This document shows, piece by piece, positions 20,882 through 61,827 of a stretch of DNA of 64,000 nucleotides. A program made the translations under genes and the position numbers. Under the pieces are notes generated by a model. That model did not search any database. It saw nothing but the letters and a program-made list of their open reading frames with translations, and was not told the origin of the DNA. Numbering within the stretch: position 1 is the first letter of the stretch; every line of letters starts with the position of its first letter. The DNA comes from a phage, in the sequence record PZ583739.1; one strand, given 5' to 3'.

Positions 20882-21172
20882 TCATTTACAACGTTCCTCT
20901 TTTAGTTCAGAACGATAATAACATAACATACCTTTTTGGTCATGTACATATCTTTTTACATCATTCATCCAAATCCGGAATTCTTGCGATGCTTCAAAAG
21001 GCATACCAACCCAGGCTTGACCCTCAATTACCTTAACTTCCCATTGCTGTTTGTAATCAGCCAATGCAACAGGCCAATTGGGATGAACTTGGATTGTGGG
21101 CTCCACAACGGGCTTCTGGGCACATGAAACGAGTCCAATAGCCAAACATACTGCCATGATAGATTTCATCAT
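20882..21172 (-). CDS. o-spanin (outer-membrane lipoprotein spanin subunit; pseT.2-like)
   Basis: 96 aa; signal peptide with lipobox LVSC; 4-nt overlap with the upstream i-spanin gene. Confidence 0.7.
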   Translation of the reverse strand: MMKSIMAVCLAIGLVSCAQKPVVEPTIQVHPNWPVALADYKQQWEVKVIEGQAWVGMPFEASQEFRIWMNDVKRYVHDQKGMLCYYRSELKEERCK

Positions 21173-21522
21173 TTGGTGAGCTCCTGGAAGTCCCGGGCGA
21201 ACTTATCAAAAGACTGATTAATCTGTTTTTCAACTAATTTAGGCTTCGCTACCACAACCTTAGTACGTTTTGCATCTGCACGGAGTTTATCATTTTCCTT
21301 CTGCAGAAGTTCAACATATTCCTGCCGCTCCTGGTCAAGGAGATTAATTTGATTAATTTGGTCTTTTACTGATTGCAGATTTTTCGCGTTATCTTCTGCA
21401 ACTTTGGTGACCGCAGCCACCTCTGTCTTGAGATTATCTACTTTTGCTTTTAGATAGAAACCACTACCAGCAGTTACTACCAGGGCGAGCATAAGCCCTG
21501 CAGTGAGATTACTTATTTGCAT
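21169..21522 (-). CDS. i-spanin (inner-membrane spanin subunit; pseT.3-like)
   Basis: 117 aa; N-terminal transmembrane segment LTAGLMLALVVTAGSGFYL followed by a long coiled-coil-like region. Confidence 0.7.
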   Translation of the reverse strand: MQISNLTAGLMLALVVTAGSGFYLKAKVDNLKTEVAAVTKVAEDNAKNLQSVKDQINQINLLDQERQEYVELLQKENDKLRADAKRTKVVVAKPKLVEKQINQSFDKFARDFQELTK

Positions 21523-57693: not shown

Positions 57694-57701
57694 TATTTAT
57701 A
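57694..57701 (-). promoter_or_regulatory. T4-type late promoter motif (TATAAATA) overlapping the gene 39 stop
   Basis: Minus strand TATAAATA immediately upstream of a 20-bp palindrome and the small ORF at 57502..57654. Confidence 0.4.
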
Positions 57702-59529
57702 GCGTCGCATTCATCCAGTCTTTACGCTGCTGGGAATCTTTACCGAATAGCATTTCGAACAGTTCTTTCCAATTGTCGGGCAATTGAACAACTTCGAATA
57801 CTGGCTCGAGCAATACGCGTTTGTACTCTGAATCTTCCAGAGAACCAAGCCCCTTGATATATCGAATGGTATGCTTCGGAAGTTTATCCTTAGCTTCTTC
57901 GTAATCAGGAAGAGAATAGAACCATTCTTGTTTATCTTTGAGCTGTGCAATAATAACAGGAGTTTTCACAAAGCGAATTCGTCCTTCATGGAACAGCTCT
58001 GGCCAGTTACTGAAAAACGCCAATAACGATGGATAGATACTACCAACACCATCCACATCCGCATCTGTCATGATAGCAATGTTTCGGTAATTCATATTCT
58101 CGGCCGGTTGTCCAATCGTTAAACCAGTAATCGCACACACATCAAAGGCTTCAGCGTTCTTCATAACTTCAACAGCTTTCAGACCCCATGTGTTTTTAAA
58201 CTTACCACGTAACGGATAAGCACCTTGCAATTCACGGTCACGAACCTTGATAAACGGACCCGTTGCAGAATCTCCTTCGGTCAGGAATAGAGTCGTTTCC
58301 AGCTTATCATTACCCCATTCGTTGGCTTTGATATGCTTTTGTACCTTGGCCTTTGAAGCTTTCTTATTTGCTTTAGTCTCTGCTGCTTTCTCTGCAGCCA
58401 ATTTACGAGCCAATGCAGCTTCAATGATAGGCGTCAGAATAGCTTCTGATTTTAACAACGAACCAGCTAACTTTTTGCCATCAACCTGGATATGTGATTT
58501 AATTTCACCGGCAGGTGAAGTCAATCGCTCCTTAGTCTGGGAATCAAATCGCATGTTCTTCATATTGCGAATAAACATCAACAATGTAATACATTCTTTA
58601 ACGCGTGCTTTGGTTACTTCAATTTTATACTTGCGTTTAATCGCCGGGATTAACACATCACACATTTCATCCATAACACATTCAATATGGTGACCACCAT
58701 TTTTTGTATGGATTCCGTTAACATAAGTCACATGACGGAAACCATCGGGTGACCGACCAATTGCAATTGAGCAATTATCTTGTTCCTGAATAATGATTTC
58801 ATCATCGTATTGCTTGGCATATTTTTTAAAGTGACCTTGCACTTTTTTACCATTGAACTTGAATTCGATATCCGGATAAATGACTGCAAGAGTCTGGATT
58901 TGGTCAAGCATAATTTGGACATATGTTTCGTCAAAACCAGACGTTTCAAAATTCGAAAAATCCGGAATAAATTTAACTTTAGTTCCTTGCAACTTTGATG
59001 GTTTTGATTTCCATGAAATATTATCAAGTCCATTTGAACAATTAACGGTTAATTCATTTTTCCCATCTGATGTAGTGCCTGTGAACAATATTGAAAAAAT
59101 ATTGGTAAGACTGGACCCAACTCCGTTCATCCCAGTGGTAACACGATTTGCATCATCACTAAAGTTTCCACCCGAACGAACCTTGGTCCATGCAGCGACC
59201 GGCCCAGGAATTTCTTCGCCTTCTGGGGTTACAACAATCGCCTGTGGAATGCCTCGACCATTATCTTCAACGGTCACTTCGTTTGTTTTGATATCAATAT
59301 TCAATGAAATTTTGTTTGCAAATTTAAAATTGGTGCGAATAGCTTCATCAATAGAGTTATTTGCAATTTCTTCGATTAATTTAATTAAACCTGGAACGTA
59401 TTGAACCTTTTTATATTCACCAAACAGAAAAATTTCTTTGTCTTCATTGGTAACACTACCGATGTACATTGATGGGCGAGCTTTTACGTGAGCTACATCA
59501 GAAAGGATTTGAATTTCATTCTTAATCAT
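57697..59529 (-). CDS. 39: DNA topoisomerase II large subunit, fused gp39/gp60 form (GyrB-like ATPase)
   Basis: 610 aa continuous ORF; GHKL ATPase motifs (NSIDEA, EDNGRGIP) at the N-terminus; longer than T4 gp39 (516 aa), consistent with the gp60 part being fused. Confidence 0.9.
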   Translation of the reverse strand: MIKNEIQILSDVAHVKARPSMYIGSVTNEDKEIFLFGEYKKVQYVPGLIKLIEEIANNSIDEAIRTNFKFANKISLNIDIKTNEVTVEDNGRGIPQAIVVTPEGEEIPGPVAAWTKVRSGGNFSDDANRVTTGMNGVGSSLTNIFSILFTGTTSDGKNELTVNCSNGLDNISWKSKPSKLQGTKVKFIPDFSNFETSGFDETYVQIMLDQIQTLAVIYPDIEFKFNGKKVQGHFKKYAKQYDDEIIIQEQDNCSIAIGRSPDGFRHVTYVNGIHTKNGGHHIECVMDEMCDVLIPAIKRKYKIEVTKARVKECITLLMFIRNMKNMRFDSQTKERLTSPAGEIKSHIQVDGKKLAGSLLKSEAILTPIIEAALARKLAAEKAAETKANKKASKAKVQKHIKANEWGNDKLETTLFLTEGDSATGPFIKVRDRELQGAYPLRGKFKNTWGLKAVEVMKNAEAFDVCAITGLTIGQPAENMNYRNIAIMTDADVDGVGSIYPSLLAFFSNWPELFHEGRIRFVKTPVIIAQLKDKQEWFYSLPDYEEAKDKLPKHTIRYIKGLGSLEDSEYKRVLLEPVFEVVQLPDNWKELFEMLFGKDSQQRKDWMNATL

Positions 59530-60322
59530 TTTTGACCTCTAAATTTTTAGTATAACCTAAACATTTCCAACTGGACCATTTTACATCATCGGAATTGCAG
59601 CGTTTTCGTAATGTAGGATAACTAATACCAAGAACTTCGGCGGCTTCTTTTCGGGTTGTGAATATGACCCCATTTATAGAGTACGTTTTAGCCTCGGGAT
59701 TTTTATCACCAGAGAATAATTTTGATAATTTATCTTTGTGTTCAAGAGAAAGATGTTTGCCAAAGAAATGATGATTTTCGCCTGCTTTACGCAGGGAGAC
59801 ATTATAACCAAAATCATCGGGGTATGGCTTTCTTTTAACACCAGTTCCATATATTCTATTATATTCGGTTTTATCTAACAGTTTATTCCGTTTTTTAACG
59901 GCTTCGCCTTTAAGTAAATTAATTTCCGCTTTTCTTGGATGATTGGACATTGTGTCACCACCAAAATCCGCCAACGTTATATTATAACCGTTTTTGATAG
60001 AATTTAATTCAGTTATCCAGAAACTTTCTCTTTTCAAGAAATATTTTTTATTATAAACTTCTATATTTTCTATTAGTTTGCATACAAATGATTCTTTACC
60101 GTATTTGTCATATGCAAACTGTAAATGGCTGTTTATGCCAACACCTTTGGATAAATTCCGAAAATGCGTGGCAATTCTACGATGAAAATCATTTGAACTT
60201 CCTATATAATATTTTTGAGATATTAAATTATAAATTATATAAATCCCACTATTTCCACTCGATGGTGGAATATAATCAGGAAATTTATTTTTTATTATCC
60301 CGAATACTTCATTAATCATCAT
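59522..60322 (-). mobile_element. GIY-YIG homing endonuclease (Seg-like) gene
   Basis: 266 aa; GIYIIYNLISQKYYIGSS GIY-YIG motif; C-terminal helix-turn-helix-like segment EAAEVLGISYPTLRKR; overlaps the gene 39 start by 8 nt. Confidence 0.75.
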
Positions 60323-60344: not shown

Positions 60345-60370
60345 ATTATAAGTCACATGTTTTAAAGCAA
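60345..60370 (-). promoter_or_regulatory. MotA-box middle promoter upstream of the homing endonuclease gene
   Basis: Minus strand TTGCTTTA, 12 nt, TATAAT, then SD AAGAGGAAAG and ATG. Confidence 0.45.
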
Positions 60371-60793: not shown

Positions 60794-61054
60794 TCATTCG
60801 AATCGGATGGTTGAATTCTTAAACAGCAATCCAGAACAAACAGTTCCTTTAACTTTCTTACCAGTTGGCCCTACGGCCGTAAAGCCTGTGTGTTGGAAAT
60901 CATCTTCAGAGCAACCCAACCAGTTATAACCGGTGATTTGGATTTGTTCATAGCCGTTTGCATCTAATACACGAATGGCATTATCTGCATCAGTACAACT
61001 AGCCAATGAAACCGCCAGTACCAGTGCTGCAATAGAACGATTAATGTATTTCAT
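60794..61054 (-). CDS. small lipoprotein
   Basis: 86 aa; signal peptide MKYINRSIAALVLAVSLASC with lipobox LASC; SD GAGGAT. Confidence 0.55.
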   Translation of the reverse strand: MKYINRSIAALVLAVSLASCTDADNAIRVLDANGYEQIQITGYNWLGCSEDDFQHTGFTAVGPTGKKVKGTVCSGLLFKNSTIRFE

Positions 61055-61060
61055 ATATCC

Positions 61061-61234
61061 TCACTTCAAAAGGTCGTAAAAACCGCCATTAACATGTTTA
61101 GGAGCCGAGACTAACCGAACAGCCAGCCGATGGCAATCAGGACAAACATCATTATCTCTTTCAGAGATTTTCTTGATTTTTTCGTATTCTTTCGCGCAGT
61201 CATTGGATTGACATTTGTAATCATAAAGTGGCAT
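61061..61234 (-). CDS. zinc-ribbon protein (FmdB-like CxxxxC...CxxC), not in the ORF track
   Basis: 57 aa; MPLYDYKCQSNDCAKEYEKIKKISERDNDVCPDCHRLAV...; N-terminal MPxYxYxC pattern typical of FmdB-type zinc ribbons. Confidence 0.45.
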   Translation of the reverse strand: MPLYDYKCQSNDCAKEYEKIKKISERDNDVCPDCHRLAVRLVSAPKHVNGGFYDLLK

Positions 61235-61235
61235 G

Positions 61236-61610
61236 TTATTCCTTAAAGTGTGCTTTCAACATCTGGTAAACGGTCCAGGCTTCAGAGTTATTAGAAATGG
61301 TGATTTTAGTCAAAGGGAATTCGCTTGGTTCAAATGCTTCATCAGCGTCTTCGCATTCATCTTCAGTATCGTCATCTTTTTCTTCTTCAAAGAAACGACG
61401 CTCATCTTCCTTTATGAATATTCTCTCTATTCCACCGGTCGAAAATTCTATCCGATATACATCACCACCTTCAATTCCGACTGGTCTAAATCCTTCACCA
61501 TTGATTATAGCATCAGCTATATTATCATTATCAGAGCATAACAAACGAAATCTGCTTTCAGCAACATTATCTTTAAAATAATACCATTTATCAGTTTCAA
61601 ATTTCAACAT
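61236..61610 (-). CDS. hypothetical protein with acidic C-terminal region
   Basis: Track ORF 61236..61733 overlaps its upstream neighbour; ATG at 61608-61610 with SD GGAAGGA gives 124 aa. Confidence 0.45.
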   Translation of the reverse strand: MLKFETDKWYYFKDNVAESRFRLLCSDNDNIADAIINGEGFRPVGIEGGDVYRIEFSTGGIERIFIKEDERRFFEEEKDDDTEDECEDADEAFEPSEFPLTKITISNNSEAWTVYQMLKAHFKE

Positions 61611-61827
61611 GATAAGTCTCCTTCCAAAAATCTGTGCCATCTTCTGATTCTTCGCGGAACAGCGCATAGCTAGGTAGTTCTGCATCTTTATCTGCGTACA
61701 CATAAATGATGTCAGTGGTACAAAGAAATTCATTGATGTTTTTCTTCACAATCACTTTATCACTTTCAGCAGTGTCCCAGAACTCTTCAGCAGTCAGGGA
61801 AGTGGTCACACAATTTTCATTAAACAT
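61597..61827 (-). CDS. hypothetical protein
   Basis: 76 aa ORF. Confidence 0.4.
   Translation of the reverse strand: MFNENCVTTSLTAEEFWDTAESDKVIVKKNINEFLCTTDIIYVYADKDAELPSYALFREESEDGTDFWKETYHVEI

Follow-up and report, generated by a model that had tools for sequence, protein, structure and literature searches.

Two small genes lie end to end upstream of topoisomerase gene 39 in the 64-kb stretch of phage DNA that was analysed here (the window). One encodes a 57-residue protein with two Cys knuckles and the other an 86-residue protein with a lipobox, and the locus raises the question of whether the two form a functional pair and of what the lipoprotein does. Both genes are already known: they are 39.2 (nwgI) and 39.1 of phage T4, ordinary annotated members of the T4-type early set. 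In our main reading, to which we give a probability of about 0.6, they belong to the T4-type early unit cef-goF-39.2-39.1-(goF-like)-(HEG)-39 as accessory genes independent of each other, one encoding a modulator of GroEL and the other a lipoprotein directed at an envelope target. This reading builds on the identity and orthology of the two products, the export and anchor signals of gp39.1, the selection acting on both genes, the fold class of the mature lipoprotein domain, the independent distribution of the two genes, and the early expression of the T4 orthologue.

Organization of the locus

The block that contains the two genes is 96–97% identical in nucleotide sequence to that of the Gaprivervirus phages TH41, UPEC01, and SP18, whose records label it goF, 39.1, cef, and 39.2, and its synteny is kept relative to T4, RB32, and SP18. 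The window is from a Gaprivervirus-type T4-like phage. All genes of the cluster are on the minus strand, in the order cef-goF-39.2-39.1-goF-like-HEG-39 (Table 1), where HEG is a homing-endonuclease gene. The goF orthologue is collinear with T4 goF, and its start is the one annotated in EAWsc9. Direct reading of the minus strand confirms the positions, lengths, and motifs that a preliminary description had given for the two ORFs, and likewise their tight juxtaposition in a small accessory-gene block upstream of gene 39. That description had placed them in a variable region, which is right for the region in part and wrong for the two genes themselves, both of which are widely conserved.

Table 1. 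Positions of the features discussed in the text, in window coordinates
Feature	Position	Strand	Details
o-spanin lipoprotein, 95 aa, lipobox LVSC	20882-21169	-	PHROG 812, E 3.4e-39
i-spanin-like ORF, 117 aa	21169-21522	-	end overlaps o-spanin start
Gene 39 topoisomerase, single unsplit ORF	57697-59529	-	610 aa
GIY-YIG homing-endonuclease gene (HEG)	59522-60322	-	266 aa; GIY-YIG, NUMOD3, and I-TevI DNA-binding domains
MotA-box middle-promoter-like site, TGCTTTA-N12-TATAAT	60345..60369	-	pattern search
goF-like paralogue, 132 aa	60388..60786	-	PHROG 622, E 2e-17; directly downstream of 39.1
39.1 orthologue, 86-aa prolipoprotein	60794..61054	-	PHROG 902, T4 identity
Mature periplasmic domain of gp39.1, residues 21-86 (predicted)	60797..60994	-	predicted: one helix and a 4-stranded antiparallel sheet
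Signal peptide and lipobox of gp39.1, residues 1-20 (predicted)	60995..61054	-	PROSITE PS51257 core pattern
39.2/39.1 junction	61055..61063	-	TGA 61061-61063, SD-like GAGGA 61058-61062, spacer 61055-61060
39.2 orthologue (NwgI), 57-aa FmdB-type zinc ribbon	61061..61234	-	Pfam, TIGR, T4 identity
goF orthologue, 124 aa from MLKFETDKWYYF start	61236..61610	-	PHROG 622 and goF PHROGs
cef	61597-61827	-	start of listed cluster

Several features of the flanking genes differ between lineages. The two goF-family paralogues, both members of PHROG 622, flank the 39.2-39.1 pair in the window. The second goF copy follows 39.1 here and separates 39.2 from 39.1 in RB32 and T2; T4 and some Gapriverviruses, such as vB_YenM_P8, lack it. 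The homing-endonuclease gene is inserted directly upstream of gene 39, the start of which it overlaps by 8 nt; at a coverage of at least 80%, it was found at the gene 39 site in only one phage record, P479 (99.6% identical), and it is absent from the closest relatives of the window. Gene 39 itself is in the fused '60 plus 39' form of the RB-type phages, whereas that of T4 is split into a 517-aa ORF and gene 60.

A pattern search returned 13 MotA-box-like sites in the window, against 3.0 expected. The sole site near the pair comes after the 39.2/39.1 block and precedes the homing-endonuclease gene and gene 39, so that transcription of 39.2 and 39.1 should come from promoters farther upstream. 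A search of the window located no late-promoter motif close to the pair. These motif positions are consistent with read-through from early promoters upstream of the two genes.

The zinc ribbon as the counterpart of T4 Gp39.2 (NwgI)

The 57-residue protein (MPLYDYKCQSNDCAKEYEKIKKISERDNDVCPDCHRLAVRLVSAPKHVNGGFYDLLK) carries the arrangement MPLYDYKC-x4-C ... C-x2-C and thus the FmdB motif, taken here as an N-terminal MP.Y.Y.C followed by two Cys knuckles about 17 residues apart. Its zinc-ligand cysteines are C8 (61211-61213), C13 (61196-61198), C31 (61142-61144), and C34 (61133-61135). A profile search supports the FmdB-type assignment of the preliminary description, with scores above the curated cut-offs of both Pfam PF09723 (Zn_ribbon_8; 44.3 bits, cut-off 34.4, E 1.8e-11) and TIGR02605 (CxxC_CxxC_SSSS; 45.6 bits, cut-off 31.3, E 5.5e-12), and a sequence search of the PDB with the protein came back empty. 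Of the 57 residues, 55 are identical in the Gp39.2 of resequenced T4. The two proteins share the four zinc-ligand cysteines, the length class (57 versus 58 aa), and a place between goF, which the gene directly follows, and 39.1; the window allele differs by K11N and T28N and by the absence of the C-terminal Gly. Judged by its identity and by the goF-39.2-39.1 order that it shares with T4, the zinc ribbon is the orthologue of T4 Gp39.2/NwgI, an already catalogued gene.

The primary study of this protein is reportedly that of Ang and Georgopoulos (Genetics 190:989, 2012), in which T4 Gp39.2 (NwgI) is said to modulate GroEL/GroES. Two articles that cite it (PMC5153855; PMC4396842) describe T4 Gp39.2 as a peptide of 58 aa with a subtle modulating effect on the GroES/GroEL machine, in which it shifts GroEL toward an open conformation, and state that T4 deleted for 39.2 is blocked on certain hosts with groEL mutations. 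If published work on T4 carries over, the window allele would be a small cytoplasmic protein that pushes host GroEL toward an open, co-chaperonin-accepting state, and this state would in turn permit growth of the phage on hosts with otherwise non-permissive GroEL/GroES variants; GroEL modulation by the window allele is accordingly given here as a putative function. Because Gp39.2 has a published function on GroEL, it is not a transcriptional regulator, nor does it act as the lipoprotein's partner. The database label 'FmdB-like transcriptional regulator' is a carry-over of the family name rather than a tested function, and it should become Gp39.2/NwgI, GroEL modulator.

The lipoprotein encoded by gene 39.1

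The 86-residue product of the downstream gene begins MKYINRSIAALVLAVSLASC/TDADN... Its signal consists of the n-region MKYINRS, with K2 and R6, the h-region IAALVLAVS, and the lipobox L17-A18-S19-C20, the Cys20 codon being at 60995-60997. We asked of a lipoprotein a positive n-region, a hydrophobic h-region, and the sequence [LVI][ASTVI][GAS]C with the Cys at residues 15–35; a script match to this PS51257 core pattern accepts the protein, with its Cys at residue 20 and K2 and R6 in the n-region, so that the signal peptide and classic LASC lipobox reported earlier are borne out. In the mature domain, C48 and C73 are near-invariant and probably form a disulfide, and conservation extends to the motifs TGY, HTGF.A, and GTVCSG..FKNSTIRF.

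Over its full length (residues 1-86), the protein matches PHROG 902 with an E value of 5.5e-36, and it is identical to T4 gp39.1 at 66 of 86 positions (77%). It has in common with the T4 protein and with PHROG 902 the length of 86 aa, the position of the lipobox, the two conserved cysteines, and a C-terminal STIRF motif, and differs from them in nothing of kind: it is an ordinary member and, by these comparisons, the orthologue of the already catalogued T4 gp39.1. Some records of relatives label it 'lipoprotein'.

Both genes are under strong purifying selection, with dN/dS values against relatives at dS 0.1–2.8 of 0.04–0.11 for 39.2 and 0.04–0.15 for 39.1. The possibility that the two are chance ORFs is ruled out by dN/dS values of 0.04–0.15 together with homologues in more than 1000 phage records.

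A structural model of the mature domain (pLDDT 88.9, pTM 0.75) consists of one helix followed by four antiparallel strands. By analogy, this resembles a generic small extracytoplasmic binding or inhibitor fold, possibly of cystatin/PepSY-like character, a likeness of class that carries no family assignment; the domains named as closest on the same grounds are cystatin, PepSY, and the colicin M immunity protein (Cmi). A fold search of BFVD returned members of the gp39.1 family only. Scans of gp39.1 and 51 relatives against Pfam, NCBIfam, and PADLOC gave nothing beyond signal-peptide-type matches, Pfam LPAM_1 being matched by 12 of the 51 relatives. A sequence search of the PDB with gp39.1 was empty, and a literature search retrieved no experiment or publication on the function of the protein.

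The T4 reference annotation and expression in T4

In the T4 RefSeq genome (NC_000866), 39.2 is annotated with 45 aa and 39.1 with 65 aa and without a signal peptide. An alignment with the resequenced T4 genome OZ209023 reveals two single-base insertions in RefSeq and a cluster of substitutions, all confined to about 180 nt that run from the 3' half of 39.2 into the 5' end of 39.1; the stretches compared were 2396-2843 of locus L003 (NC_000866.4) and 298-743 of locus L009 (OZ209023.1). In OZ209023, Gp39.2 has 58 aa and gp39.1 is an intact prolipoprotein of 86 aa whose lipobox is LIGC, and the identical 86-aa gp39.1 is found in at least nine other T4 records. Since the proteins of resequenced T4 are intact, T4 itself has the 39.2-39.1 arrangement, with a gap of 2 nt. 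The lipoprotein nature of gp39.1 was hidden because the reference annotation of T4 is without the signal peptide. By truncating 39.2 and concealing the 39.1 lipobox, the RefSeq entry affects every study that maps data onto that annotation.

In a time-resolved omics study of T4 infection, 39.1 belongs to the class 'early-RNA_late-Protein' and the RNA of 39.2 is early, the 39.2 protein not being quantified (PMC9697503, supplements 4 and 6). The class given to 39.1 implies that T4 gp39.1 protein is detected during infection.

Spread and variation of the gp39.1 family

A tblastn search identified gp39.1 in 1065 phage records. A profile search of 1.84 billion representatives recovered 2286 clusters at E <=1e-3, 1104 of them at <=1e-10, the clusters counted being representatives at 50% identity and nearly all of them 80–130 aa in length. 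None of the 94 relatives from the gp39.1 homologue search has a precomputed Pfam domain. The T4-like phages that carry the gene infect Enterobacteria, Aeromonas, and Vibrio, and the family occurs elsewhere in the Xanthomonas phage XacN1, the Stenotrophomonas phage IME-SM1, the Sinorhizobium phage phiM7, the Agrobacterium phage Atu_ph07, and a Rhodobacter siphophage. A scan of bacterial genomes with a single gp39.1 protein yielded one MAG contig, itself phage-like and of podophage-like character, in which the family member adjoins primase-helicase and PolA genes. At the near end of this range, the T4 and T2 proteins are identical at 85 of 86 positions, and 488 records of phages from E. coli, Shigella, and Yersinia carry a gp39.1 of at least 95% identity.

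The lipobox core pattern is present in 195 of 242 sampled family members, most of the others having a hydrophobic, uncleaved N-terminal anchor without Cys, and the lipobox Cys is at least 90% conserved in both of our alignments (A1 and A2). The minority without this Cys implies that tethering to the outer membrane is not essential to the function of the family. According to the Lol rule of E. coli, the residue at position +2 determines the sorting of a lipoprotein. Position +2 is Thr or Ser in 148 of the 166 members with Cys at the lipobox position, and sorting of the gp39.1 family to the outer membrane is therefore predicted. C48 and C73 are invariant in alignment A1, and some members have a second Cys pair. 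Paired cysteines in the mature domain are typical of oxidizing compartments and, as a sequence feature, are as would be expected of a periplasmic protein. One metagenomic member (P0123, 142 aa) has two tandem gp39.1 mature domains behind a single signal peptide, and in several others the last two strands contain an additional cysteine pair, CC...C.

The 39.2/39.1 junction

The preliminary description regarded the two genes as translationally coupled. The 6-nt gap that it gave is confirmed by direct reading: GGATAT separates the 39.2 stop codon from the 39.1 ATG (61052-61054), and the SD-like GAGGA overlaps that stop codon (Table 1). Both features would suit a coupled module whose products act together, for example with the zinc ribbon controlling or chaperoning the synthesis or export of the lipoprotein. 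The adjacency of the genes in T4, JS98, and the Gapriverviruses is also in its favour, as are the 605 phage records, of 1311 matched by a concatenated query, in which the two genes share one location; in the rest, a single gene was matched.

Against this stands the structure of the operon, in which every gene of the cluster is flanked by equally tight junctions: cef and goF overlap by 14 nt, goF stops 1 nt ahead of the ATG of 39.2, which directly follows it, the homing-endonuclease gene runs 8 nt into gene 39, and 39.1 is separated from the next ORF by 7 nt, with the same TGAGGATAT motif as at the 39.2/39.1 junction. The junction RNA has a minimum free energy of −17.9 kcal/mol, compared with −23.0 on average for shuffled sequences (z +1.63), and folds less well than 195 of 200 shuffles, and the comparison with shuffles predicts no occluding structure, that is, no hairpin that would sequester the ribosome-binding site. 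With an SD of its own at 39.1, a junction RNA of this kind, and tight junctions throughout the operon, specific translational coupling is not supported.

The distribution of the genes also counts against a module. Each is found without an intact copy of the other, and they have been gained, lost, or separated independently in other phages. The Mosigvirus HX01 has the zinc ribbon and no lipoprotein, a Slopekvirus-like Klebsiella phage has the lipoprotein at another locus, and in RB32 and T2 a goF-like ORF of 105–124 aa comes between 39.2 and 39.1. In the Jiaodavirus 311F, an intact lipoprotein gene is next to a zinc-ribbon remnant that has lost the first Cys knuckle, which suggests that 39.2 is decaying and 39.1 is kept in Jiaodaviruses. 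The remnant, an unannotated stretch of 41 aa with in-frame stops upstream (Klebsiella phage vB_KpnM_311F, positions 1245-1370 of locus L068), is 85 nt upstream of the lipoprotein gene. Of 62 loci examined, only 20, all T4-like, have a zinc ribbon in the vicinity of the lipoprotein, no other conserved neighbour of gp39.1 was found, and distant phages have the lipoprotein without a zinc ribbon within 2–3 kb. Gp39.2, moreover, has a documented cytoplasmic target of its own in GroEL. We consider a coupled module highly improbable; the evidence is against a functional pair and describes 39.2 and 39.1 as independent, co-transcribed, and tightly packed neighbours.

Possible roles of gp39.1

Under the main reading, the sequence, the model, and the T4 data together allow a route for gp39.1 to be proposed, in which lipidation, sorting to the outer membrane, and the disulfide are inferred, and most of all what the protein targets and with what effect. 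It would be made early and exported by Sec, lipidated at Cys20, and cut by signal peptidase II, as its lipobox predicts. In the periplasm, it would display a 66-residue helix-plus-sheet domain of cystatin/PepSY-like type, probably locked by the C48-C73 disulfide. This domain may bind, and most likely inhibit or shield, some component of the periplasm or envelope that is conserved among Gram-negative hosts, for which a hydrolase of peptidoglycan, an envelope protease, and an envelope machine are candidates, and the target would not be a phage-specific outer-membrane receptor. A conserved target is favoured because of the near-identity of the T4 and T2 proteins, the conservation across the 488 records, and the presence of the same domain in phages of unrelated hosts; as to which component it is, our confidence is low.

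The preliminary description had named superinfection exclusion as a candidate role for the lipoprotein, with T5 Llp and T4 Imm and Sp as comparisons. In its most specific form, that of T5 Llp or of Cor from phi80 and T1, an early outer-membrane lipoprotein binds the phage's own receptor from the periplasmic side, blocks adsorption or DNA entry of later phages, and protects progeny from debris. The likeness of gp39.1 to Llp and to the Cor proteins of phi80, T1, and N15 is one of design only: it is small, early, and predicted to be directed to the outer membrane, has a compact periplasmic domain predicted to contain a disulfide, belongs to the size class of Llp, and sits in a block of accessory genes. 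No detectable sequence similarity and no top-ranking fold similarity to Llp or Cor was found, nor is there a sequence match to entries of Pfam, PADLOC, or the PDB, and in some members of the family a transmembrane segment takes the place of the lipid as anchor. Llp and Cor, moreover, are specific to a single receptor, FhuA, whereas the conservation of gp39.1 extends over phages with different receptors and hosts. T4 uses OmpC and LPS as its receptor and T2 uses FadL and OmpF. A receptor-masking protein should track receptor usage; gp39.1, one residue apart in T4 and T2, does not vary in this way, which argues against masking of the Llp type. The same can be said of its conservation across Tequatrovirus-type records from different host genera and of the occurrence of the domain in phages of Xanthomonas, Rhodobacter, and Sinorhizobium. 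We therefore regard receptor masking as unlikely, and an envelope role that is not receptor-specific, some form of exclusion included, as possible. Imm and Sp (Spackle) resemble gp39.1 in being envelope proteins of T4 that are made early and act once the cell is infected. Imm resides in the inner membrane, and Sp is a soluble, helical protein of the periplasm that inhibits the gp5 lysozyme; neither is a lipoprotein, and no similarity of gp39.1 to either was found.

A part in lysis, as an o-spanin-like outer-membrane lipoprotein or an accessory to one, would agree with the small size of gp39.1, its predicted location, and its conserved cysteines, and is nevertheless barely credible. The window already encodes a canonical spanin pair elsewhere (Table 1), no i-spanin overlaps or adjoins gp39.1, and the context is not a late one, T4 39.1 being transcribed early. 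In the model, moreover, the fold is compact and globular, unlike the extended, proline-rich o-spanin type. The spanin pair (20882-21522) adjoins a pseT-like polynucleotide kinase gene, and apart from gp39.1 its o-spanin is the one ORF of the 64-kb window that has a lipobox.

A wider form of the conserved-target reading is more speculative, and we put it forward tentatively as something that could be so and probably is not. Here gp39.1 would represent a large, unrecognized class of early phage periplasmic proteins, absent from Pfam and spread over about 2300 clusters (at 50% identity) in myo-, sipho-, and podo-type phages of many Gram-negative hosts, that use a strongly conserved, 66-residue disulfide domain to neutralize one universally conserved envelope component independently of the receptor. 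That component might be a hydrolase of peptidoglycan, a protease or stress sensor of the envelope, or a machine for outer-membrane biogenesis. In T4, such a class may have been overlooked through the faulty annotation of the gene in the reference genome, from which the signal peptide is missing.

For the window itself, the identification of the two genes is of little consequence, one of them having a published function. With gp39.1, it brings into view a bona fide, expressed, and very widespread family of phage lipoproteins without a Pfam entry, whose conservation points to a conserved envelope target over a receptor and makes it a reasonable and cheap candidate for experiment. If the wider form is true, the family would embody a receptor-independent mechanism of takeover or protection, distinct from those of Imm, Sp, Llp, and Cor.
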